From Escherichia phage vB_EcoM_AYO145A: a stretch of 64,000 bases of DNA. A program made the translations under genes and the position numbers. The stretch is taken from the sequence record KR014248. One strand, given 5' to 3'. The notes beneath the pieces are model-generated. The model did no database searches and was not told the origin of the DNA. It saw only the letters and a list, made by a program, of their open reading frames with translations. Of this stretch, positions 6,416 through 57,899 are shown one piece after another (the stretch's first letter is position 1; the number at the start of each line of letters is the position of its first letter).

Positions 6416-6812
6416 CTGTGCAGATGATGCAGACCGTTGGGCTGAACTTCAAGACTTAAGAGCAGAGTTTAGAGACATCTTAGTGAGGTCTTCTAAAACA
6501 AATGTAGAGTACACACAAAAGGATTTTCCAAAGGTTCCTTTGTATGTTATACACCAAAATAATCTAATGAACTCTGGATTAAGTTTGCAACAAAGGATGG
6601 AAATTTGCCTAGCAAGGTATTACATTAATGTTGACGCCAAAGTTGGTGAATTGATTAAGTGTCCGTGCTGTAATCTTGAATTTAAGAAGAAGACATACCA
6701 ACAAAAGTTTTGTGGAGTTAAAAAGAGAGGTCGCTCTAACTGTAAAGACTTCTTCTTTAATTTCACTGACTTAAAAAGAAATAACAGAGCTAAGTTCTTT
6801 ATTGTGGGGTGA
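6369..6812 (+). CDS. hypothetical protein with CPCC/CxxC motif
   Basis: 147-aa ORF; start more likely the ATG at 6405 (GAGGA RBS); contains CPCCN...C. Confidence 0.45.
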   Translation: MLKMVNYQQRNLQMGDCADDADRWAELQDLRAEFRDILVRSSKTNVEYTQKDFPKVPLYVIHQNNLMNSGLSLQQRMEICLARYYINVDAKVGELIKCPCCNLEFKKKTYQQKFCGVKKRGRSNCKDFFFNFTDLKRNNRAKFFIVG

Positions 6813-7141
6813 TTATGGAAGTGAACGGTAAAACCATTGTAGCTGTCATCCAAGATAGTGAAAAAGATATTGGTGTAGCACAAGTCACATATGGTAACGG
6901 TAAGTTCCTATATGGTGTTGTGGCAATGGTAGGGACAAGGGGTGATACAAAAACTTTCAAAGATTGTGTTGACCTTCTTGAAGAATCCATCCATAATCAT
7001 TGGTGTCTGATATGGATGACTGACAACGAAGTGATAGAACGCTTCAAAAAGATTGGTATCAACATTGATGGTATTGAGCATGTTGATTTATACGAACTAA
7101 CTGAGAAGGTAAACTATGAAAGTAATACTAGCCAGAGATAA
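6809..7141 (+). CDS. hypothetical protein
   Basis: 110-aa ORF with coupled start. Confidence 0.5.
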   Translation: MIMEVNGKTIVAVIQDSEKDIGVAQVTYGNGKFLYGVVAMVGTRGDTKTFKDCVDLLEESIHNHWCLIWMTDNEVIERFKKIGINIDGIEHVDLYELTEKVNYESNTSQR

Positions 7142-7343
7142 AAAGACACGAAAACTTATCAGGTCAGCAGTGTTCATTGGACGAAATGAGGTCATCCCAT
7201 TTACAGCAAATGATGTGATAGCTTACAGGAAGAACTTAGTATTCACTGACTGCTTACGTGGCTTCATCTCTGAACCATTGGAAGACTTTAAAAGTCGTTG
7301 TGGTAAAGGCATCATCATTCAAGAGGCAATTATTCATGGCTGA
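7116..7343 (+). CDS. hypothetical protein
   Basis: 75-aa ORF. Confidence 0.4.
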   Translation: MKVILARDKKTRKLIRSAVFIGRNEVIPFTANDVIAYRKNLVFTDCLRGFISEPLEDFKSRCGKGIIIQEAIIHG

Positions 7344-7536
7344 CTTCTGTAAAGACTGTTCTATCGAAATGTTCGGACGTGATACAGGTGACTTAAAAGG
7401 TCTCATCACTGAAGATGACTTTAAAGCTGGTTATGCAATGCCAGTAATCTGTGAAGGTTGTGGGTGTATCTGGGTAGACCACAAAGGGCAACGTGTAAAA
7501 CCTTCAGAAGACAAAGAATCTTGGGAGAGATGTTAA
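7336..7536 (+). CDS. small zinc-ribbon-like protein
   Basis: internal ATG of the 7258 ORF with AGAGG RBS; CKDCS...CEGCGC cysteine pairs. Confidence 0.4.
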   Translation: MADFCKDCSIEMFGRDTGDLKGLITEDDFKAGYAMPVICEGCGCIWVDHKGQRVKPSEDKESWERC

Positions 7537-8322
7537 ATGGGTATTGTAAAAATTATCAATGGTAATATCTTTGACGCATTTGATAAAGGTAAGTTTGACA
7601 TCATTGGTCATGGTTGCAACTGTATGAATTTCATGGGTGCAGGTATTGCAGCAACTATTTCTAAGCGTTATCCAAAAGTGTATGATACTGATACAGAAGT
7701 TTACCTGTTTGCAGGTGGCATTCGTCACAAACCCTGTGAAAATTTACTAGGTAATTTCTCTGTAGCACGTTTAAAACAAGGTCGTATAGCTAACCTTTAC
7801 ACCCAACTTCATACTGGTAAAGATGCCCGATACAGTGCTTTAGAGTCATCTTTGAAGCAGCTTAACAGATACTGTGAAGTCAATCAGTTGAAGAAAGTTG
7901 GGTTACCTATGATTGGTGCAGGTATCGGTGGGCTAGACCCTCAAGCCGTCACAGTTATCATCAATCAGGTGATGAAGAGTGTAGATGTTTATCTATATGT
8001 CTATGAAGGAGAGATGTACCACAAGTTACGCTCAGGTTGGAAGAACTACTGTGAACCAGAATACTTTGCAGGTGTAGTTGTGTTCACGGATAATGCAGTT
8101 ACCCTCTTCAGACGAAGAAAAGGTAAGATACATCAAAGTAACCCTCCGGTTGAAAAGATGTCTCTAAGTAACGCTCTAGTTACCCACCTGTCGAAGAGCA
8201 ATCACGGGATTGCAGTAACATTTGGCAGTGATGCAGATACTTACATCTATGCAAGAACTGATGAGGATATCGAGACAGTTTTCTCTTCGCCAGAAGTTAC
8301 CTTCTTAGACGCAAAGAACTAA
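7537..8322 (+). CDS. macro-domain protein (TARG1/OARD1/DarG-like ADP-ribose hydrolase)
   Basis: IIGHGCNCMNFMGAGIAATI and GLPMIGAGIGGLDP resemble the TARG1/DarG-type macro signature (H-C-x-x-C...MGAGIA, P-x-IGCG-x-D) as I recall it. Confidence 0.6.
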   Translation: MGIVKIINGNIFDAFDKGKFDIIGHGCNCMNFMGAGIAATISKRYPKVYDTDTEVYLFAGGIRHKPCENLLGNFSVARLKQGRIANLYTQLHTGKDARYSALESSLKQLNRYCEVNQLKKVGLPMIGAGIGGLDPQAVTVIINQVMKSVDVYLYVYEGEMYHKLRSGWKNYCEPEYFAGVVVFTDNAVTLFRRRKGKIHQSNPPVEKMSLSNALVTHLSKSNHGIAVTFGSDADTYIYARTDEDIETVFSSPEVTFLDAKN

Positions 8323-24347: not shown

Positions 24348-24719
24348 ATGAAAAACAGAACAAACAAAGGCCAGTTTAAAAAAGGCCAGTCTGGAAACCC
24401 ATCTGGAAGACCAAAAGGCTCTCGTAACAAAAGCTCACTCGTAAAAGCTCAACTGACCATTGATAATTCTGCTGAGTTCGCTGCAAAGCTGTTTGAGGCG
24501 ATTGTTACAAGGGACGCGGCTAAGCTTGCAGAGTTCGGGTTAAACACAGATGACGTAACCATCAAGAGTATGATTGAGGTCGGTAAAACTATCTTTACTC
24601 ACTCAGCAGGTGAGATGAAAGCACTTGCAGCAGACACTAAGAAGACTCCTGATAATGGTGGTCAACAACAGACAGATAACAAACCAACGTTCTCTGCTGT
24701 AGCGACTCTCAAAAAATAA
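24348..24719 (+). CDS. hypothetical protein with basic Gly-rich N-terminus
   Basis: 123 aa; KGQSGNPSGRPKGSRNK N-terminus. Confidence 0.5.
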   Translation: MKNRTNKGQFKKGQSGNPSGRPKGSRNKSSLVKAQLTIDNSAEFAAKLFEAIVTRDAAKLAEFGLNTDDVTIKSMIEVGKTIFTHSAGEMKALAADTKKTPDNGGQQQTDNKPTFSAVATLKK

Positions 24720-24800: not shown

Positions 24801-26216
24801 ATGAGCGAATTATTTAAACATGCGCACCTTCATGCAGGTCGAACTGAAAATGGTGCTGTAAACCATACTTCATCAATGTCTGCTCTTGTAGACTTTTACA
24901 AAGCTGCTGGTTCTAGCCGTAGCAATGTAGGAATCTTACCAGACCTGTTCTACAAAGCTTTGCGTGAGGATGTTGATGTTGCAGTTCGTATTTTGCTTCA
25001 TATGCGAGATGTACGAGAAGGTATGGGTGAGCGTAAAGCTTTCCGAACTGTTTTACTTCAAGCGATTGAAGATAAAGTTTTAGAGCCTACGCAGGTTCTT
25101 CGCATTATGGATAAGATTGCAGAGCTTGGTCGTTTTGATGACTTCAAAATCTTCGTGGGTACTCGTTTCGAGACAGATGCCTTCAAACATTTAGAAGCAG
25201 CATTACTAGACCCTGCAACAGCAGGTTTGGCAGCTAAGTGGTTACCACGAGTCAAACCACGTCATAAGCAGTTTGTAAAACGTTTCTGCAAGTTTGCAAA
25301 CTTGAGTGAGAAAGAGTACCGCACACTGTTGTCTGCACTATCTGATACAGTTGAACAAAAAATCTCTGCTAATGAGTTTGGTAAGATTGACTACAGTAAG
25401 ATTCCTTCACTTGCTGCTGCACGTTACCAAAAACTCTTTAACCGTAAAGATGGAGAACGCTACAAAGCTTACATCGAGTCACTCTCAAAAGGTGAGGCCA
25501 AGATTAACGCTGGTGCTGTTTACCCATACGATGTGATTAAATCTATCAAGTATGGTAATGCAGATGTTGCTAATGAGCAGTGGAAAGCACTACCAAACTG
25601 GATGGTAGAAGGTGAAAACATCCTGTGTATGACTGATGTTTCAAGCTCAATGTCTTGGGTGAATCTTGGTTCAATCACTGCCCTTGATATTGGTGTATCC
25701 CTTGCCTTGTATGTAGCAGAACGCAATACAGGTTGTTTTAAGAATGAGTTAATGGTTTATTCAACAAACCCTCATTTCATCGAATTGAGTGGTGATTTAC
25801 GAAACCGTCATCGTCAGATAATGCGTCATGTTGAATATGGCTCAACTAACTTACAAGCAGCTTTTGACCGTATTCTTGAAATAGGCAAGAGAAACAACTT
25901 GACTCAGAAAGATATGCCAAGTAAGCTTATTATCTTCTCTGATATGGAGTTCAATCAGGTTGATGGAGCTAACGGTCGTACAAACTTTGAAGCAATTCAG
26001 AGTAAGTACAAAAAAGCTGGATATGAGATGCCACAACTGGTATTCTGGTACTTAGCAAACCGTAATGGTACTTGCGAAGTATCTGTTAAGGATAATGGTG
26101 TAGCAATGGTATCAGGGTTCTCTCCAGCCACTTTAAAAGCTCTGCTTGGTGGTGAGAAGTTTGACCCAATCAGCGTAATGCTCAAAGCAGTAATGATTGA
26201 CCGTTATATCTGGTAA
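24801..26216 (+). CDS. Ro60-like TROVE + vWA protein (Rsr-like)
   Basis: 471 aa; vWA MIDAS-like ILCMTDVSSSMSW and LIIFSDMEFNQ; central VYPYDVIKSI and C-terminal NG...GF..ATL resemble Ro60 as I recall it. Confidence 0.55.
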   Translation: MSELFKHAHLHAGRTENGAVNHTSSMSALVDFYKAAGSSRSNVGILPDLFYKALREDVDVAVRILLHMRDVREGMGERKAFRTVLLQAIEDKVLEPTQVLRIMDKIAELGRFDDFKIFVGTRFETDAFKHLEAALLDPATAGLAAKWLPRVKPRHKQFVKRFCKFANLSEKEYRTLLSALSDTVEQKISANEFGKIDYSKIPSLAAARYQKLFNRKDGERYKAYIESLSKGEAKINAGAVYPYDVIKSIKYGNADVANEQWKALPNWMVEGENILCMTDVSSSMSWVNLGSITALDIGVSLALYVAERNTGCFKNELMVYSTNPHFIELSGDLRNRHRQIMRHVEYGSTNLQAAFDRILEIGKRNNLTQKDMPSKLIIFSDMEFNQVDGANGRTNFEAIQSKYKKAGYEMPQLVFWYLANRNGTCEVSVKDNGVAMVSGFSPATLKALLGGEKFDPISVMLKAVMIDRYIW

Positions 26217-26234: not shown

Positions 26235-26263
26235 TTGACAATGTGTTTGATACCCTTTAATAT
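26235..26263 (+). promoter_or_regulatory. sigma70-like promoter (TTGACA-N17-TAATAT) inside the GGGTAT/ATACCC inverted repeat
   Basis: consensus boxes read by eye. Confidence 0.45.
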
Positions 26264-26325: not shown

Positions 26326-26355
26326 TTGACAACCACTAAAAAATAATGTTAAAGT
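26326..26355 (+). promoter_or_regulatory. promoter TTGACA-N18-TAAAGT upstream of the first tRNA
   Basis: TTGACAACCACT...AGTGGTT inverted repeat spanning the -10. Confidence 0.45.
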
Positions 26356-26381
26356 GGTTACATAGAGTTTGAAAAGTTTAT

Positions 26382-26458
26382 CTCTGTTTAGCTCAGCTTG
26401 GTAGAGCGTTCCGTTTGGGGCGGTAAGGCCGGAGGTTCAAGTCCTCCAACAGAGACCA
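26382..26458 (+). tRNA. tRNA-Pro(TGG)
   Basis: cloverleaf by eye; anticodon loop TTTGGGG; D- and T-arms close to E. coli tRNA-Pro; CCA encoded. Confidence 0.75.
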
Positions 26459-26465
26459 AATTAAT

Positions 26466-26543
26466 GTTCCAGTAGACAAAATGGTAAAGTCACCACTCTT
26501 TCAAAGTGGATATTTGAGGGTTCAAATCCCTTCTGGAACGCCA
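26466..26543 (+). tRNA. tRNA-Glu(TTC)
   Basis: acceptor GTTCCAG/CTGGAAC; anticodon loop CTTTCAA; T-loop TTCAAAT; CCA. Confidence 0.7.
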
Positions 26544-26550
26544 GTTTTGA

Positions 26551-26623
26551 CAGAAGACCAATTACAGCAAACTTAATCTTATTCATCTGACACGAAATCG
26601 GACAAAGAAGAGATTTGGTCTGG
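26551..26623 (+). ncRNA. structured spacer RNA candidate (CAGAAGACC...GGTCTGG family, copy 1)
   Basis: 5' CAGAAGACCA and 3' TGGTCTGG form the terminal helix; shared internal CAGCAA box. Confidence 0.3.
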
Positions 26624-26634
26624 TCATTAAGAAT

Positions 26635-26711
26635 TGCGGGTATAGAGAAAGGGCGTCTCACATGTCTCATTAGCATGGTATCGGCAGGTTCGACTCCTGC
26701 ACCCGCCTCCA
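26635..26711 (+). tRNA. tRNA-Met(CAT), or Ile2/fMet
   Basis: anticodon loop CTCATTA; T-arm GCAGGttcgactCCTGC; CCA. Confidence 0.55.
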
Positions 26712-26717
26712 ATTTTG

Positions 26718-26777
26718 CAGAAGACCGTATGCAGCAATAAACTACTTTTTGCGGATAAAAGAAAAAACACGGTCTGG
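26718..26777 (+). ncRNA. structured spacer RNA candidate (same family, copy 2)
   Basis: CAGAAGACCG ... CGGTCTGG; compensatory G:C where copy 1 has A:T. Confidence 0.3.
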
Positions 26778-26788
26778 CAATGTATTAA

Positions 26789-26865
26789 GGTTAGGAAGCA
26801 CATAAGGTATGTGCGGTCGCCTGTTAAGCGAATGGCACAGGGTTCGAATCCCTGACTAACCGCCA
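26789..26865 (+). tRNA. tRNA-Asn(GTT)
   Basis: anticodon loop CTGTTAA; T-arm CAGGGttcgaatCCCTG; CCA. Confidence 0.65.
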
Positions 26866-26874
26866 AATTTAAAT

Positions 26875-26962
26875 GTGTCGTTATCCCGTAGATGGTAGCG
26901 GTGGGGACTGTAAATCCCTTGTCATTGAGACTCGGTAGGTTCGACTCCTACACGGCACACCA
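26875..26962 (+). tRNA. tRNA-Tyr(GTA)
   Basis: 88 nt with long variable arm; anticodon loop CTGTAAA; CCA. Confidence 0.7.
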
Positions 26963-26968
26963 AATAAA

Positions 26969-27046
26969 GGTTATGTAGTTTAATCTGGTTAAAATACTCC
27001 CCTGTCACGGGAGATGATGAGGGTTCAAATCCCTTCGTAACCGCCA
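26969..27046 (+). tRNA. tRNA-Asp(GTC)
   Basis: anticodon stem CTCCC/GGGAG, loop CTGTCAC; CCA. Confidence 0.75.
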
Positions 27047-27133
27047 AATTATAATAAGTATTCCAAGATGATGTTTTGAGAGGGCTATTTAGCCCCTCCC
27101 TTAAAGAGTTCTTACGAGTATTCTTTAAAGGAG

Positions 27134-27210
27134 CAGAAGACCAAATTCAGCAAGTACGTATGATATTTTCAAGCCAATTTAATTTTGAAAAAATTTAAAA
27201 CTTGGTCTGG
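27134..27210 (+). ncRNA. structured spacer RNA candidate (same family, copy 3)
   Basis: CAGAAGACCAA ... TTGGTCTGG. Confidence 0.3.
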
Positions 27211-27223
27211 CTCAACAAATTTA

Positions 27224-27355
27224 CAGAAGACCGTTTACAGCAAAACTTAAACAATCTATTTCTCCGGTAAAGAAAAGGCGAAGGTTCGATTCCTTCACTC
27301 GGCAGATGTCGAGTTGGTGTAATGGTAGCACTTAAGATGATAAACAACGGTCTGG
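27224..27355 (+). ncRNA. Y-RNA-like RNA candidate (YrlA-type, permuted tRNA-like module)
   Basis: terminal helix AGACCGT/ACGGTCT; inside, T-arm GAAGGttcgattCCTTC, then ACTCGGC-agat-GTCGAGT acceptor-like hairpin, then TG and D-arm GTGTaatggtaGCAC; about 1 kb downstream of the Ro60-like gene. Confidence 0.45.
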
Positions 27356-27357
27356 TA

Positions 27358-27500
27358 ATTATCTTTGTAGATAAGTTATTAAGCTTACCTGTGAGTATGC
27401 GACCACAAAGGGTGAAAGGGTAAATTCTAGATTTAAACCCAACAAGGCACATCGCTACAGACCTTAAGCAAGTCTGGGTAGCTTATCTACAAAGATAATT
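27358..27500 (+). ncRNA. structured RNA candidate closed by a perfect 19-bp inverted repeat
   Basis: AATTATCTTTGTAGATAAG (27358-27376) is the exact reverse complement of CTTATCTACAAAGATAATT (27482-27500); internal CAGACcttaagcaaGTCTG hairpin. Confidence 0.35.
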
Positions 27501-27505
27501 TTAAT

Positions 27506-27581
27506 GGAAGTGTAGCAGAATGGTGATGCGGCAGACTTTTAATCTGACAGGCGATGGGTTCGAATCCCTCCACTTCTACCA
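27506..27581 (+). tRNA. tRNA-Lys(TTT)
   Basis: anticodon loop CTTTTAA; T-loop TTCGAAT; CCA. Confidence 0.65.
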
Positions 27582-27585
27582 ATAT

Positions 27586-27662
27586 GGTTCAGTCGCAGAT
27601 AAGGTAATGCAGGGGTCTCATAAGCCCTATGAATGTGGGTTCGATTCCCATCTGAACCTCCA
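27586..27662 (+). tRNA. tRNA-Met/Ile(CAT)
   Basis: acceptor GGTTCAG/CTGAACC; anticodon loop CTCATAA; CCA. Confidence 0.65.
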
Positions 27663-27663
27663 A

Positions 27664-27739
27664 GCTGGTATAGTTAAGAAGGTTATAACACTCCCCTGAT
27701 AAGGGAACATCGGTGGTTCGATTCCACCTACCAGTACCA
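27664..27739 (+). tRNA. tRNA-Ile(GAT)
   Basis: D-stem GTTA/TAAC; anticodon loop CTGATAA; T-arm GGTGGttcgattCCACC; CCA. Confidence 0.65.
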
Positions 27740-27754
27740 ATTTCAATAAAGTTG

Positions 27755-27783
27755 TTGACATTGAGATGTGACTACTTTATAGT
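27755..27783 (+). promoter_or_regulatory. sigma70-like promoter (TTGACA-N17-TATAGT)
   Basis: internal promoter inside the tRNA island. Confidence 0.5.
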
Positions 27784-27987
27784 AACCTTAGTTTTCGTTG
27801 CGTAGCGTCTATTTTGCAAATTTAAAATAAATGCAAACGACAATGTTTTTCTGGCAGTAGCTTGATAGGCTAAACACCAGTGAGGTCTTCCAATCCCTCA
27901 TCAAAGAATTTGGCGTACTCGCCCACGGTATGATTAATAAGGTGGGCATCTTTAAGGGCTTTCTAAGAGAGTCTTTAAAGATAATTA

Positions 27988-28069
27988 CGGGGCGTATCTC
28001 AGCGGTCTTCTAAACCGCCGTTAACCGAGTAAGTGGAGTATGCGGGTTCGAGTCCTGCCGCCTCGACCA
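27988..28069 (+). tRNA. tRNA-like, possibly Arg(TCT); non-canonical D region
   Basis: good acceptor (CGGGGCG/CGCCTCG), T-arm and CCA; GCGGTcttctaaACCGC fits an anticodon arm but leaves no room for a normal D-arm. Confidence 0.35.
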
Positions 28070-28211
28070 AATAGTTAGCAGATTACTTAGACGGTCTTAG
28101 CGGGTCTTCCTGTAGGGAGGTGGTCTGTATCTCATGTTTTCCAGAACATGTAAATAATCTGAGAAGGGGCTTTACAGTGTTGAGATAATACGGTAAGCTT
28201 CGAATTATAGT

Positions 28212-28294
28212 GTGGGACGATGTTAAGACTCTAAGGCATGAGCAACGGCTTCCAACACCGTTTCAAAGGGGTTCAACTCCTCCGTCCCATGCCA
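28212..28294 (+). tRNA. tRNA-like, possibly Trp(CCA); enlarged D region or anticodon loop
   Basis: acceptor GTGGGAC/GTCCCAT, T-loop TTCAACT, CCA; AACGG-cttccaaca-CCGTT contains CCA in a 7- or 9-nt loop. Confidence 0.35.
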
Positions 28295-28307
28295 AAGTCT
28301 TATTAGG

Positions 28308-28395
28308 GGTAGGTAGCGGCTAATGGTAGCCAAACTGTCTTGAAAACAGTTGCCACTGTAGAGATACGGTGAGGGTTCGACTCCTTTACTTACCG
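28308..28395 (+). tRNA. tRNA-Ser(TGA)
   Basis: class II: anticodon stem ACTGT/ACAGT, loop CTTGAAA, long variable arm; 3' CCA not encoded (GCCT). Confidence 0.65.
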
Positions 28396-28652
28396 CCTAA
28401 TAAGATTTAAAGCCAAGCTTCATTCGGATGTTGCTTTGGTATACCGCGTGTATTGTTGTACGCACTGATAAAGCACCTAGTAGGTGTCACGGAGAAGAGA
28501 TAATATCAAGCTCTCCAAAGGTTCTAGTCACCGGATTAAACAAGACTATGCAAAGACCTTTTTAGGTCTTTTTAGAGGGCTTCTAAGGTTATTACAGCTT
28601 GTTGTGGAACCTTGTTGCTTAGGTTCTTAGAAGTTCTCTAAAAAGACTTAAT

Positions 28653-28730
28653 GGGAGATTGACGGTAATTGGTAAACCTATCTCGCTTAGAACGAGATGT
28701 TTGAGGGTTCGAATCCCTTGTCTCCTACCA
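28653..28730 (+). tRNA. tRNA with anticodon TAG (Leu by anticodon; class-I-like shape)
   Basis: anticodon stem TCTCG/CGAGA, loop CTTAGAA; T-loop TTCGAAT; CCA; short variable loop. Confidence 0.5.
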
Positions 28731-28737
28731 AATTAAT

Positions 28738-28813
28738 GCAGGTGTAGCAAAATGGTTATGCGGCTGACTCTTAATCAGTAAGACGATGGGTTCAATTCCC
28801 TCCACCTGTACCA
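28738..28813 (+). tRNA. tRNA-Lys(CTT), tentative
   Basis: acceptor GCAGGTG/CACCTGT; anticodon loop CTCTTAA; weak T-stem; CCA. Confidence 0.5.
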
Positions 28814-28819
28814 AACAAT

Positions 28820-28895
28820 GGGGATGTAGTTTACATGGTTAAAACATAAGTTTTGCAAACTTAAGTACAGGGTTCAATTCCCTGCTTCTCCACCA
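28820..28895 (+). tRNA. tRNA-Ala(TGC)
   Basis: anticodon stem TAAGT/ACTTA, loop TTTGCAA; T-arm CAGGGttcaattCCCTG; CCA. Confidence 0.65.
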
Positions 28896-28901
28896 ATTAG
28901 T

Positions 28902-28976
28902 GCATCCATAGTTTAAACGGGAAAATTACAGTCTTCCAAACTGAGGTTGAGGGTTCGATTCCCTCTGGATGCTCCA
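28902..28976 (+). tRNA. tRNA-Gly(TCC)
   Basis: acceptor GCATCCA/TGGATGC; anticodon loop CTTCCAA; CCA. Confidence 0.7.
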
Positions 28977-28982
28977 AACAAT

Positions 28983-29059
28983 GCTGCTTTCGTATAATTG
29001 GCTATTACACATCCCTTGTAAGGATGGAAATGCAGGTTCGAGTCCTGTGAGCAGCACCA
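28983..29059 (+). tRNA. tRNA-Thr(TGT)
   Basis: anticodon stem CATCC/GGATG, loop CTTGTAA; CCA. Confidence 0.7.
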
Positions 29060-29062
29060 ATT

Positions 29063-29150
29063 CAGAGGTCAAGTGAAAGACCGCTTTGAGTCAACTGAAG
29101 ACCGTAACAAATTCCACGGAGTTGAGTTAGCGGCACAACTCCAGACCTCT
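29063..29150 (+). ncRNA. structured spacer element
   Basis: outer helix AGAGGTC/GACCTCT enclosing GGAGTTGagttagcggcaCAACTCC hairpin and a GAAGACCG box. Confidence 0.25.
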
Positions 29151-29155
29151 TTCAT

Positions 29156-29230
29156 ACTCGCTTAGTTTATATGGTAAAACATCACCCTTACAAGATGAAG
29201 AAAAAGGTTCAAGCCCTTTAGTGAGTACCA
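29156..29230 (+). tRNA. tRNA-Val(TAC)
   Basis: D-stem GTTT/AAAC; anticodon loop CTTACAA; CCA. Confidence 0.65.
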
Positions 29231-29231
29231 T

Positions 29232-29309
29232 GTTCCAGTATCCCAATTGGCAGAGGATGCAAGCTCAAACCTTGTATTAGTGACGGTTCGAATCCGTCTT
29301 GGAACACCA
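29232..29309 (+). tRNA. tRNA with anticodon CAA (Leu by anticodon)
   Basis: anticodon stem GCAAG/CTTGT, loop CTCAAAC; T-arm GACGGttcgaatCCGTC; CCA. Confidence 0.55.
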
Positions 29310-29314
29310 ATTTT

Positions 29315-29390
29315 GCAGGATTAGTTCAAATGGAAAGAGCAACAGTCTACGAAGCTGTTAATAGGGGTTCGAATCCCTTATCCTGCGCCA
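29315..29390 (+). tRNA. tRNA-Arg(ACG)
   Basis: acceptor GCAGGAT/ATCCTGC; anticodon loop CTACGAA; CCA. Confidence 0.7.
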
Positions 29391-29409
29391 ATTTAAAGAG
29401 GCTATTTAG

Positions 29410-29967
29410 ATGAGATATTTGAAGTATGCTTCATGGATTTTCTTAGCTTTGTTAGAGCCATTTGCAGCAATCTTAGCAGTTATCTTAGCACCTTTCGTAG
29501 TTCCATTCTACAGTGAGAAGAAAGGCCACTTACCTTTCGGATTTAGATGGATGGAGACCTATGACAACCCGATTGATGGTGATGAAGGCCACGTTAAAAG
29601 ATGGGCTAAGATTAGAAAGATTGGTAAGCTCGGTGTTTATATGCAGAGAGTTGGATGGCTCTGGAGAAACAAAGCTTATAACTTCTCTTACCATGTATTA
29701 GGAAGAGATGTAAAAGATGTTACTAAGTGGAAAGGTAATATCAACGTAAGTTCTAACCCTGAAGATAATCAGACAGGTTATCTCCTAATGTGGAACAGTA
29801 ATGCTTGGGGATTATTTGCTTTTATCCCATCTATTAAAGTCTTTGGTAAACAATTCTACTGGAGAATTTATGTTGGGTGGAAACTAAAAAGTGTTGTCCC
29901 AGAAGAAAGAGCATTCTCAAGGGAAAGAGTTATGTTGGCATTCTTTATTCATCCACTAAGAAAATAA
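29410..29967 (+). CDS. hypothetical membrane protein embedded in the tRNA island
   Basis: 185-aa ORF with N-terminal hydrophobic segment; flanked by tRNAs. Confidence 0.5.
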   Translation: MRYLKYASWIFLALLEPFAAILAVILAPFVVPFYSEKKGHLPFGFRWMETYDNPIDGDEGHVKRWAKIRKIGKLGVYMQRVGWLWRNKAYNFSYHVLGRDVKDVTKWKGNINVSSNPEDNQTGYLLMWNSNAWGLFAFIPSIKVFGKQFYWRIYVGWKLKSVVPEERAFSRERVMLAFFIHPLRK

Positions 29968-29975
29968 AGATTTAA

Positions 29976-30051
29976 AGGGGATTAGTTTACAAGGTTAAAA
30001 CCTCGGTCTTTGAAATCGAAGAAGTTGGTTCAATTCCAACATCCCCCGCCA
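29976..30051 (+). tRNA. tRNA-Gln(TTG)
   Basis: anticodon stem TCGGT/ATCGA, loop CTTTGAA; T-arm GTTGGttcaattCCAAC; CCA. Confidence 0.65.
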
Positions 30052-30053
30052 AT

Positions 30054-30132
30054 GCTCCATTACTCCAATTGGCAGAGAGGCCAGACTTAAAATCTGTGTT
30101 ATGTATCGGTTCGAATCCGATATGGAGTACCA
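30054..30132 (+). tRNA. tRNA with anticodon TAA (Leu by anticodon)
   Basis: anticodon loop CTTAAAA; T-arm ATCGGttcgaatCCGAT; CCA; 7-nt variable loop. Confidence 0.55.
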
Positions 30133-30137
30133 AATTT

Positions 30138-30213
30138 AGCGGTATAGCATAACTGGCAATGCAACAGTCTCTGAAGCTGTCCTATTAAGGTTCAAATCCT
30201 TATGCCGCTGCCA
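30138..30213 (+). tRNA. tRNA-Gln(CTG)
   Basis: anticodon loop CTCTGAA; T-arm TAAGGttcaaatCCTTA; CCA. Confidence 0.65.
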
Positions 30214-30244
30214 CTTCTAAGGGTTCTTACGAGAGTCCTTAAAT

Positions 30245-30320
30245 GTGGCCTTATCATAAAAGGTAATGACCCATGCTGTGAACATGGTCTATACGGGTTC
30301 AAATCCCGTAGGTCACCCCA
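30245..30320 (+). tRNA. tRNA-His(GTG)
   Basis: anticodon stem CCATG/CATGG, loop CTGTGAA; CCA. Confidence 0.7.
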
Positions 30321-30326
30321 ATTTAT

Positions 30327-30402
30327 AGTCCAAGTAGCTTATATGGTTAAAGCGCGTGTCTGAAAAACATGAGAAGAGGGTTCAAATCCCACTGGACTAC
30401 CA
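30327..30402 (+). tRNA. tRNA-Phe(GAA)
   Basis: D-stem GCTT/AAGC; anticodon loop CTGAAAA; T-loop TTCAAAT; CCA. Confidence 0.65.
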
Positions 30403-30418
30403 ATTTCAAAGGTGCTTA

Positions 30419-31153
30419 ATGAAAGAGATGACAGAACAAGGTAAGGAGATTTTTAATCTCTTAAAAACCGGTAAAGGGTTCTCTAACCCGCTTATTACTG
30501 GTGCAGCAGTTCTCGGTGGAACCGTAGCTGCTTCTACATCACTTGTAAGCTCTATTAGTTCTGTAACAGACCCTACAATGAAGGAGAAACTTGTTGCTGC
30601 TGGACTTACAACAGTCCTTTTAAACAGCTTTACAACAAGCCTTACAAGCACTACAGCAACTACTAAGACCCTAACAGACTACGGTCAAAAGTCTATTGAT
30701 GAGTTTTCATCACGTATGCAGGTAGCAAAGGGATACTCCAATGTTATGGGTGCAGTAGGAGAACAAGTTGGTTGTACACCATTCAGTGGTATTATGGGTG
30801 TTGCTACAGAGTATGGTCAAAAAGCTATTGACACAATTAACAGTGCACTAGACGGTGTTAATGATGTATTAAGTGACTTACAAGATGCTATTGATAAAGG
30901 TCTTGATACTGTTTCTGATTTAGCTAACCAAGCTGTTAGTAAGATTAATGAAGGTATCTCAAAGATTACAGCTTATGCAGATGAAGTTGTGCAGATGATT
31001 GAAGAAGAAGCTGCCCTTATTGCAGAGTACCTTAAAACAAATATCAATGGGTTCTTAGCAGGTATCTTACCAGACTGGTTTGATGATGCTTGTAAAACTG
31101 GTGTGATTGATACTATTGCAACACCAGAAATGAAGAACGCATTACAGAAATAA
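30419..31153 (+). CDS. hypothetical Ser/Thr/Ala-rich protein
   Basis: the ORF-track start at 30356 lies inside tRNA-Phe; first ATG after the tRNA is 30419; low-complexity N-terminal half. Confidence 0.5.
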   Translation: MKEMTEQGKEIFNLLKTGKGFSNPLITGAAVLGGTVAASTSLVSSISSVTDPTMKEKLVAAGLTTVLLNSFTTSLTSTTATTKTLTDYGQKSIDEFSSRMQVAKGYSNVMGAVGEQVGCTPFSGIMGVATEYGQKAIDTINSALDGVNDVLSDLQDAIDKGLDTVSDLANQAVSKINEGISKITAYADEVVQMIEEEAALIAEYLKTNINGFLAGILPDWFDDACKTGVIDTIATPEMKNALQK

Positions 31154-31154
31154 T

Positions 31155-31247
31155 GGAAGATTAACCCTAAAAGGTAAGGGAGCAGTTTGCTAAACTGCCA
31201 GTAGCTGAGAAATCGGTGTACCAGTTCAAGTCTGGTATCTTCCTCCA
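31155..31247 (+). tRNA. tRNA-Ser(GCT)
   Basis: class II, 93 nt: acceptor GGAAGAT/ATCTTCC, anticodon stem GCAGT/ACTGC, loop TTGCTAA, long variable arm; CCA. Confidence 0.65.
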
Positions 31248-31251
31248 ATTT

Positions 31252-31327
31252 GAATCCGTGACAGAAATGGCTATGTGCCTGTCTGCAAAACAGGTTTATA
31301 AGGGTTCGAGTCCCTTCGGATTCTCCA
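31252..31327 (+). tRNA. tRNA-Cys(GCA)
   Basis: acceptor GAATCCG/CGGATTC; anticodon stem CCTGT/ACAGG, loop CTGCAAA; CCA. Confidence 0.7.
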
Positions 31328-57539: not shown

Positions 57540-57899
57540 TTATGGGAACAGACACTTAATGTCATCGTTTTTGAAGACAAAACTTGTGTAGTTGTGACCA
57601 TCAACATCTAGCCAAACAGCCTGAACATCTACACCATCAAGATTCTGGTAAAGCTCTTTGATGAAGTGGTCTTTCACAATCTGGCTGCTAGTTGTCTCCA
57701 GCTTAATGTTCGAGATTGCTGAACCTACAGCCATATAACCCATGACACGTTTCTTCTCAGTATGCTTAATCTTACCATCTTTGTAAGCCATAATGAGATT
57801 GGAAAGAATCTTCACACCGTAGTACTTTTCAAGGTGAGTAGGTACACCATAAAATCCTAATGCGAAGTTTTCAGAGTGGATAATGTTTTCACGTTTCAT
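57540..57899 (-). CDS. hypothetical protein
   Basis: 119-aa ORF. Confidence 0.5.
   Translation of the reverse strand: MKRENIIHSENFALGFYGVPTHLEKYYGVKILSNLIMAYKDGKIKHTEKKRVMGYMAVGSAISNIKLETTSSQIVKDHFIKELYQNLDGVDVQAVWLDVDGHNYTSFVFKNDDIKCLFP

Follow-up and report, generated by a model that had tools for sequence, protein, structure and literature searches.

Organization of the locus

The stretch of DNA analyzed here (the window; 64,000 nt, sequence record KR014248) comes from Escherichia phage vB_EcoM_AYO145A, a Felix O1-type myovirus of the genus Felixounavirus, and contains 25 tRNA genes on the + strand (26382-31327; ARAGORN). Among these tRNA genes lie four related elements whose ends pair into a helix, and upstream on the same strand a gene for a protein with a predicted Ro60-like fold was distinguished. 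We interpret the elements as probable genes of small RNAs resembling Y RNAs, with this protein as their partner. The features concerned are:

24801-26216, + strand: gene of a 471-aa Ro60-like ring protein (DUF2828 + DUF7788/vWA), recognized from its open reading frame (ORF), Pfam matches and fold prediction; the proposed RNA partner.
26551-26623, + strand: copy 1, short type, 73 nt; helix 26555-26561/26615-26621 (AGACCAA/TTGGTCT), box 26565-26570, trailing GG.
26718-26777, + strand: copy 2, short type, 60 nt; helix 26722-26728/26769-26775 (AGACCGT/ACGGTCT), box 26732-26737.
27134-27210, + strand: copy 3, short type, 77 nt; helix 27138-27144/27202-27208 (AGACCAA/TTGGTCT), box 27148-27153.
27224-27355, + strand: copy 4, tRNA-mimic type, 132 nt; 8-bp helix 27228-27235/27346-27353, box 27238-27243.

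A preliminary description, made from the sequence alone, had placed four paralogous spacer RNAs at exactly these positions, and reading of the sequence confirmed both their location and their common layout. All four copies start with CAGAAGACC, carry a CAGCAA box exactly 3 nt past the 5' strand of the helix and end with GGTCTGG; exact CAGAAGACC occurs four times in the window (both strands), each time in one of the copies. Copy 1 is flanked by tRNA-Glu and tRNA-Met, and copy 2 by tRNA-Met and tRNA-Asn. All of them follow the Ro60-fold gene on its own strand, at distances of 335-1140 nt downstream, a closeness expected of Y RNA genes. Single-sequence folds of all four copies close with the terminal helix, and their z-scores are unremarkable (-0.7 to -2.1). 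The helix, the 3-nt linker and the box are referred to below as the handle. A 1.6-kb query around the four RNAs matched 299 phage records, 236 of which cover at least 80% of it, with identities from just over 80% to more than 99%.

Covariation of the handle in homologous loci

Within the window, the terminal helix exists in two states, AGACC+AA/TT+GGTCT (copies 1 and 3) and AGACC+GT/AC+GGTCT (copies 2 and 4), which is the compensatory change from which a selected RNA helix had been proposed. For a comparison on a wider scale we used 80 viral contigs (numbered with the prefix L) encoding homologues of the window protein, of which five are Felix-like, one shares 47% identity and the others share 39-45%. 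A strict scan for CAGCAA set 3 nt past one strand of a perfect 7-bp helix, with the other strand 20-260 nt farther downstream and followed by G, gave 120 matches on the gene strand (421 CAGCAA boxes) and 15 on the opposite strand (346 boxes). No more than 1 kb from the gene were 83 of the 120 gene-strand matches, and 51 of the 80 loci had at least one of them.

The consensus of the handle is 5'-[A/U]G[R]NNNN-N-U-W-CAGCAA...NNNN[Y]C[U/A]-G-3', and its helix varies in sequence nearly everywhere (e.g., AGATTAG/CTAATCT, TGGTTCC/GGAACCA, AGGATCG/CGATCCT and AGAGTGG/CCACTCT). Among 66 distinct non-Felix handles, pair 2 is invariably G-C, while the other six of the seven pairs change on both sides, and RNAalifold applied to 25 full-length short members predicts the handle helix and nothing else; both analyses used examples picked for perfect pairing and thus describe the diversity of pair types, not the pairing rate. 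A selection-free test took every CAGCAA in the tRNA-array spacers by position alone, with shuffled downstream sequence as the control: in five Ounavirinae-type tRNA arrays a perfect helix at the 3-nt linker was found for 13 of 21 boxes and for 26 of 420 shuffled ones, and several of the remaining boxes are one pair short of a perfect helix. In Ounavirinae-like relatives with 63% (L085), 53% (Yersinia phage P778, L086, and L087) and 47% (L006) protein identity, the same spacers of the tRNA array keep the handle with a changed helix, including AGAGCAC/GTGCTCT, AGGACAC/GTGTCCT, AGACTCT/AGAGTCT and GGACTGT/ACAGTCC. The covariation across homologues is strong. It upholds and strengthens the structural reading of the preliminary description, in which the four spacers are paralogous structured RNAs with a selected helix; what that description lacked was the explanatory context, namely the Ro60-like gene next door and the fact that the RNAs are linked to it throughout the family.

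Models built from distant loci also recover the window copies. With a score model trained only on non-Felix loci, the three highest-scoring window sites, both strands considered, were copies 4, 1 and 2 (30.2, 28.9 and 23.2 bits, respectively), with maxima of 16.0-21.8 bits in three shuffled windows; copy 3 was outside its 16 best window sites. A covariance model from 25 non-Felix short RNAs found copies 2, 1 and 3 at 27.2, 25.5 and 19.1 bits, respectively (rough E-values of 8e-4, 1.9e-3 and 0.054), the recovery of copy 3 being weak; copy 4 exceeds the length handled by this model. Since relatives carry the handle and models trained outside the Felix group recover the copies, a chance origin of the copies is excluded.

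Several searches gave no usable signal. A mini covariance model made from the joined handle halves found nothing useful, and the variable interior was not spanned; a weight matrix of the 5' half held too little information to single out the copies in 128 kb, so that the pairing must be scored along with the 5' half. Handle-like sites at 57678-57737 (- strand; 21.4 bits, 5-nt linker) and 29455-29661 (+ strand) fall within ORFs (a 119-aa ORF; DUF7338, Pfam 8e-62) and were treated as chance matches. A strand bias of CAGAAGA in distant loci, considered as conservation of a Felix 5' motif, was dropped because it reflects coding bias (Q-K/E-E codons) without a closing helix; one such site falls inside the DUF2828 gene itself.

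Linkage of the handle to the DUF2828 gene and its modularity

About half of the homologue loci have no tRNA gene nearby, and the handle is linked to the gene rather than to tRNAs. In several of these loci (L009, L010, L013, L016, L017, L020 and L023), the first five of which have no tRNA at all, a handle RNA lies 27-35 nt past the stop codon of the gene. Listeria phage List-36 carries three tandem handle RNAs directly upstream of the gene (L082, 3620-3885), Campylobacter phage F368 two upstream (L084, 2865-3016), and Mycobacterium phage LeBron three directly downstream (L083, 4428-4676), where CAGCAA is retained in a GC-rich genome. No handle RNA was found on the opposite strand of these three loci. 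Like these isolates, L059 and L068 have tandem copies away from tRNA clusters, the arrays comprising two to four copies.

The interiors enclosed by the handle differ in type: (i) some members are short, AU-rich RNAs (44-75 nt), many of which contain AGCAA two or three more times; (ii) others are tRNA mimics that combine a T arm with a closed acceptor (copy 4, L006 9106-9224, L019, L026, L043, L068 and others); and (iii) several larger conserved domains also occur. The extra AGCAA motifs are spaced about 12-14 nt apart inside the loop in the short RNAs of L013, L016, L017, L020, L023, L059 and others, and are absent from the short copies of the window; they would suit multivalent binding or a sponge.

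Some loci have a handle in the leader of the gene. In ten of them (L008, L012, L015, L025, L029, L038, L051, L057, L060 and L074; e.g., L012 1760-1799, L015 2855-2894 and L074 5735-5776) a minimal handle, consisting of a helix with CAGCAA, or CAGCAT/CCGCAA, in its loop, ends a few bases 5' of the Shine-Dalgarno sequence of the DUF2828 gene, and many other loci have a full handle RNA whose 3' end directly adjoins the ribosome-binding site. The leader of the Felix-type gene has no minimal handle. This layout is typical of translational feedback and suggests autoregulation of the protein's own mRNA; it is also a hint that the protein recognizes the handle directly.

Two of the loci show additional features. 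In List-36 a ROOL RNA (RF03087; 91.5 bits, gathering score 99.1, E 4e-17) is located at 2426-2977, about 650 nt upstream of the handle RNAs; it may be among the "highly transcribed unannotated regions" of phage CKA15 (PMC12282133). A gene for an RtcB-type "tRNA splicing ligase" (6810-8021) lies 1.3 kb downstream of the Ro-like gene of List-36, and the set of Ro-like gene, handle RNAs and ligase resembles the bacterial rsr-yrlA-rtcBA arrangement. In LeBron (L083, 4495-4617) the 3' strand GGAGUCCA can pair either with UGGACUC, the 5' strand of the handle, or with AACUCC just past the CAGCAA box; the latter pairing is the choice of the Rfam YrlA model, and an alternative-pairing switch is conceivable.

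The Ro60-like protein

Animals, about 5% of bacteria and a few phages are known to possess Ro60 and Y RNAs. The 471-aa protein encoded upstream of the window copies matches DUF7788 (2e-43), DUF2828 (9.6e-29) and, weakly, VWA_2 in Pfam, and falls in PHROG 850, named "RNA-binding protein." Its AlphaFold2 model, computed on an alignment of homologues, has a mean predicted local distance difference test score (pLDDT) of 87 and a predicted template modelling score (pTM) of 0.87. With this predicted model, the top 12 Foldseek matches in PDB are all Ro60, Rsr or phage Ro60 structures, with full-length alignments (E 2e-8 to 4e-6; template modelling scores 0.40-0.63), including Thermus phage phiLo Ro60 (PDB 9kop, the best match), Xenopus Ro60 and Deinococcus radiodurans Rsr. 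There are no other matches below E 1e-3, and isolated vWA domains start at E>3e-3. The model shows a helical-repeat ring closed by a vWA domain with a MIDAS (metal ion-dependent adhesion site), as in the Ro60 family, and the residues of this site (D279, S281, S283, T349 and D381; DxSxS...T...D) are invariant in 42 homologues. As all the best Foldseek matches belong to the Ro60 family and sequence and profile searches of PDB sequences gave no Ro60, the window protein is assigned a predicted Ro60 fold without detectable Ro60 sequence similarity.

Homologous proteins are encoded in at least 708 phage records (tblastn), with hosts including Escherichia, Mycobacterium, Salmonella, Vibrio, Listeria, Staphylococcus, Campylobacter, Enterococcus, Bacillus, Aeromonas and others; Mycobacterium phage records annotate the DUF2828 homologue as "Ro-like RNA binding protein." A gene for a 123-aa DUF5681 protein (24348-24719, + strand) is located directly 5' of the Ro60-like gene in the window and in all fetched Ounavirinae-type relatives.

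One orthologue has been studied genetically. The gp130 protein of phage Bas63 (Felixounavirus), with a Ro60-like structure and a gene directly before tRNA genes, is reported to counter the Ppl defence, its deletion sensitizing the phage to this system; the authors suggested "some tRNA genes" as Y RNAs, characterized only the protein and identified no RNA (PhageMaP preprint, PMC11482910). The Bas63 genome (MZ501086, L093) encodes a protein 97.5% identical to that of the window at the same position before tRNA-Pro, and carries all four handle RNAs, unannotated. Two opposite-strand "hypothetical proteins" are annotated there instead (L093 5249-5401 and 5413-5523, about 27190-27470 of the window): bas63_0137 spans copy 4 together with the end of copy 3, and bas63_0138 covers a hairpin element past copy 4. 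These and similar calls in several other records are probably spurious ORFs. In a study of a Listeria phage, an Rsr-like protein detected in virions was noted to be encoded near highly expressed unannotated regions, for which Y RNAs were raised as a possibility (PMC12282133). In the literature searched on DUF2828, Felix O1 small RNAs and Ro60 in phages we found no description of handle RNAs.

The tRNA-like module of copy 4 and relation to known Y RNAs

The tRNA-like module, which had been ascribed to the fourth copy only, is indeed confined to it. In the minimum free energy (MFE) fold it forms a four-way junction with the following predicted parts:

27246-27336, + strand: permuted tRNA-like module as a whole.
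27246-27250 with 27332-27336, + strand: anticodon-stem equivalent.
27259-27275, + strand: V hairpin.
27280-27296, + strand: T arm, GAAGG-TTCGATT-CCTTC.
27297-27314, + strand: closed 7-bp acceptor, ACTCGGC-AGAT-GTCGAGT.
27317-27331, + strand: D arm.

Circularly permuted and supplied with CCA, copy 4 gives a full ARAGORN cloverleaf, in which the handle is a 40-nt insert in the anticodon loop. In native order ARAGORN called no tRNA at 27224-27355, and the Rfam tRNA model (RF00005) gave a partial match (model positions 7-64; 22 bits, under the gathering score of 29). The tRNA-mimic copy is kept in L087 and L006, reduced in L086 and absent from L085.

The order V-T-acceptor-D, joined via the anticodon-stem equivalent, is that of the bacterial YrlA RNA, which likewise has a closed acceptor stem without a free CCA (PMC4201824). 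Bacterial Ro60 loci contain two or more Y RNAs each, one of them tRNA-like (PMC4201824), and the window pattern of three short RNAs and one tRNA mimic is similar, the short copies resembling YrlB. As with the YrlA and YrlB RNAs bound by Rsr (PMC4201824; 10.1101/312249), several RNAs per locus are encoded on the same strand, within about 1-2 kb of a Ro60-fold gene; their ends pair as a presumed protein-binding module and their interior is a variable effector module. The two systems differ in the partner, which is here a DUF2828/DUF7788 and not a TROVE protein, in the embedding of the window RNAs in a tRNA array, and in the protein-binding end: the YrlA consensus in Rfam (RF02553) has cggCgaAUGCu, whereas the handle has a 7-bp helix, whose pair 2 is always G-C, connected by a 3-nt linker to a CAGCAA that is single-stranded, and a G after the 3' strand. 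RF02553 (gathering score 69 bits) gave no match in 26540-27510, including copy 4, even at E<=10; outside the window it matched the LeBron tRNA-mimic member over the whole model at 39.8 bits, which is sub-threshold, and L068 at 26.7 bits. No Rfam family covers the window copies or describes the handle. That some members combine a YrlA-like interior with a different protein-binding end is as expected if another protein family reads that end.

Phage-encoded systems of this kind have been described before. Thermus phage phiLo encodes a Ro60 together with Yrl1 and Yrl2 (PMC12135203), and Y-like RNAs adjacent to Ro60-fold genes were reported for TROVE-encoding mycobacteriophages, CcrColossus and Bacillus phage G (PMC4201824); in all of them, as here, small RNAs proposed or shown to bind the protein lie next to its gene. 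Those phages have recognizable TROVE proteins and CGAA-motif RNAs, while the present set has a DUF2828 protein and the CAGCAA handle, and with at least 708 phage records it is much wider than the set of TROVE phages. The survey of Chen et al. (2014; PMC4201824) was limited to genomes with an annotated TROVE domain.

Transcription and processing

Small stable RNAs co-transcribed and co-processed with phage tRNAs are known from T4 (species 1 and 2, rnaC/rnaD), and the window RNAs would resemble them in this respect; no Ro-like partner of the T4 RNAs is known to us. In the window, two tandem sigma-70-like promoters were predicted just past the Ro60-like gene from consensus matches:

26235-26263, + strand: putative promoter, 10/12.
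26326-26355, + strand: putative promoter, 10/12.

The next promoter-like site on the + strand with at least 10/12 is at 27755, past tRNA-Ile, and the scan found no terminator-like site on the + strand in 26355-27755; hence the four RNAs would be co-transcribed with nine tRNAs from the putative promoters. Copies 1 and 2 start 6-7 nt past a tRNA 3' end and stop 11 nt short of the next tRNA, so that RNase P and 3' trimming enzymes would free them almost at the handle.

Other structured elements of the tRNA array

Four further regions of the array, on the + strand, also drew attention. Between copy 4 and tRNA-Lys (27356-27505; about 145 nt) a 24-bp terminal stem closes a multi-branch fold (MFE -48.3 kcal/mol, z = -6.06), which has a counterpart with different stem bases in L085 and no Rfam match, and may be another structured RNA. 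The region 5' of copy 3 (27047-27133; z = -3.55) contains two or three hairpins (GGGCU..AGCCC, CUUUAAAGA...UCUUUAAAG), similar in L085 with changed stem bases, and could comprise processing or 5'-extension elements of copy 3. The tRNA-Thr/tRNA-Val spacer (29060-29155; z = -3.81) is closed by AGAGGUC/GACCUCU and has a handle-like start (AGR...), with UGAAAG instead of a CAGCAA box; it may be a degenerate fifth paralogue. At 27988-28066 the Rfam tRNA model scored 31.7 bits (gathering score 29), yet ARAGORN called no tRNA there; Bas63 has tRNA-Arg annotated between tRNA-Ile and tRNA-Ser, which corresponds approximately to this part of the array. The region 5' of it (27755-27990) contains the promoter-like site at 27755 (11/12) and weak matches to transfer-messenger RNA (16-29 bits).

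Interpretation of the handle RNAs

Taken with the linkage to one gene family, the four spacers are probably genes for Y RNA-like small RNAs partnered with the adjacent DUF2828-type Ro60-like protein, and handle RNAs in general are best explained as a widespread new variant of Y-like RNAs paired with a second, sequence-unrelated Ro60-like lineage. The four RNAs would be transcribed with the tRNAs from the promoters past the Ro60-like gene and excised by tRNA-processing enzymes. The ends of each RNA would then form a helix of 7-8 bp, with 3 nt separating its 5' strand from a single-stranded CAGCAA box, and judging from gene linkage this handle may be the docking site for the ring-shaped protein encoded immediately upstream. 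The enclosed sequence would serve as a variable effector module, in the window three short AU-rich RNAs and one tRNA mimic. With its closed acceptor stem and YrlA-like build, the mimic of copy 4 could either recruit factors that bind tRNA or distract them. During infection, RNA metabolism is probably what the ribonucleoprotein acts on, and it probably also aids the phage against host defence, given that the protein's orthologue in Bas63 counters Ppl. In some other phages, the minimal handle in the 5' leader of the protein's gene suggests feedback control of its translation.

Several points weigh against this interpretation. Among the 80 loci, 29 have no strict handle match within 1 kb of the gene, and the covariance model revealed weaker or variant handles in about six of these 29. 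The covariation within the window is only suggestive, being weak on its own because two base pairs take just two states among four paralogues, and the pair counts from distant loci come from the selected examples described above. The handle is unlike the known Ro60-binding motifs: GGUCCGA is the motif of metazoan Y RNAs. Bacterial YrlA has GNCGAAN0-1G (PMC4201824). In the handle the terminal stem is present and covaries, and the conserved motif is instead CAGCAA past a 3-nt linker; GCAGAAG of copies 2 and 3, which agrees with GNCGAAG at 6 of 7 positions, is absent in relatives. On the protein side, Pfam gave no TROVE match in the 471-aa protein, and no Ro60 was found among PDB sequences by phmmer with the window protein or by hmmsearch with a 42-member profile. 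In the absence of detectable sequence similarity, the analogy with Ro60 rests on fold and gene context. The proposed link to Ppl concerns the protein, not the RNAs. What the analysis shows is the genomic linkage, the covariation, the modular build and the predicted fold of the protein, and it is by inference that we add RNA accumulation, protein binding and a biological role.

Another explanation accepts the structured RNAs and assigns them a different partner: a host RNA-binding protein of the Hfq, ProQ or CsrA type titrated by CAGCAA/AGCAA, a ribonuclease or another phage protein, the linkage to DUF2828 then reflecting shared regulation or a shared pathway. The additional AGCAA motifs of many short members, two or three per RNA at intervals of about 12-14 nt, are sponge-like and fit this idea, as does the dissimilarity of the handle to known Ro60 sites. 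However, the association with one gene spans phages of Proteobacteria, Firmicutes, Actinobacteria and Campylobacterota and loci with Bacteroidota-type promoters, among which host factors differ; minimal handles occur in the leader of the DUF2828 gene itself; and the predicted fold is an RNA-binding ring whose cellular relatives bind RNAs encoded adjacently. We therefore regard a different partner as unlikely.

Less probable still, and in our view improbable, is that the elements act in cis as processing, spacing or stability signals of the tRNA precursor (e.g., RNase III/E sites) or of the DUF2828 mRNA, and are not stable RNAs. The copies do stand between tRNAs, 6-13 nt from their ends, as parts of a single transcription unit, and some phages have a handle in the 5' leader of the gene. 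Nevertheless, the handle adjoins the gene where a locus has no tRNA, two to four copies can be arrayed in tandem outside tRNA clusters, and processing signals would not need elaborate conserved interiors, among them whole tRNA mimics in which T, D and acceptor arms are all present.

That the copies are what is left of a small element, mobile or recombining, bounded by inverted repeats, or that they are repeats arisen by chance in an AT-rich spacer, can practically be dismissed: inverted-repeat termini, several copies in one region and homing endonuclease genes interrupting the region in some relatives (H48, H51) would fit, but the arms differ between copies and genomes yet remain complementary, the matches are strand-specific (120 vs. 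15) and score above all shuffles, and a conserved asymmetric box with a fixed 3-nt linker always stands next to one gene family in unrelated phages.

Building on the pairing of handle RNAs with the DUF2828-type protein, a more general view is possible, though we advance it tentatively: DUF2828 rings, which occur in hundreds of phages from at least five bacterial phyla, would be loaded through one universal handle with interchangeable modules (tRNA mimics, AGCAA-repeat RNAs and several larger conserved domains), the handle would autoregulate the protein's own mRNA, and phages would generally use the ribonucleoprotein against host immunity directed at RNA or tRNA. Such an anti-immunity role is hinted at by the Bas63 phenotype with Ppl and by the RtcB ligase encoded near the Ro-like gene in Listeria phages.

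Significance for phage biology

The handle RNAs provide concrete candidates for the RNA partner of a protein encoded by at least 708 sequenced phages, including well-used and therapeutic types (Felix O1-like phages, P100-like Listeria phages, KVP40-like Vibrio phages and Campylobacter phages). They would also explain "empty" spacers of phage tRNA arrays, which are now left unannotated or mis-annotated as antisense ORFs. The proposed protein-recognition handle is new and lends itself to a clear mutational design, with the box, the linker and the helix as separate targets. Through the tie to the reported anti-defence phenotype of gp130 against Ppl, the role of phage Ro-like proteins and tRNA mimics becomes directly approachable.

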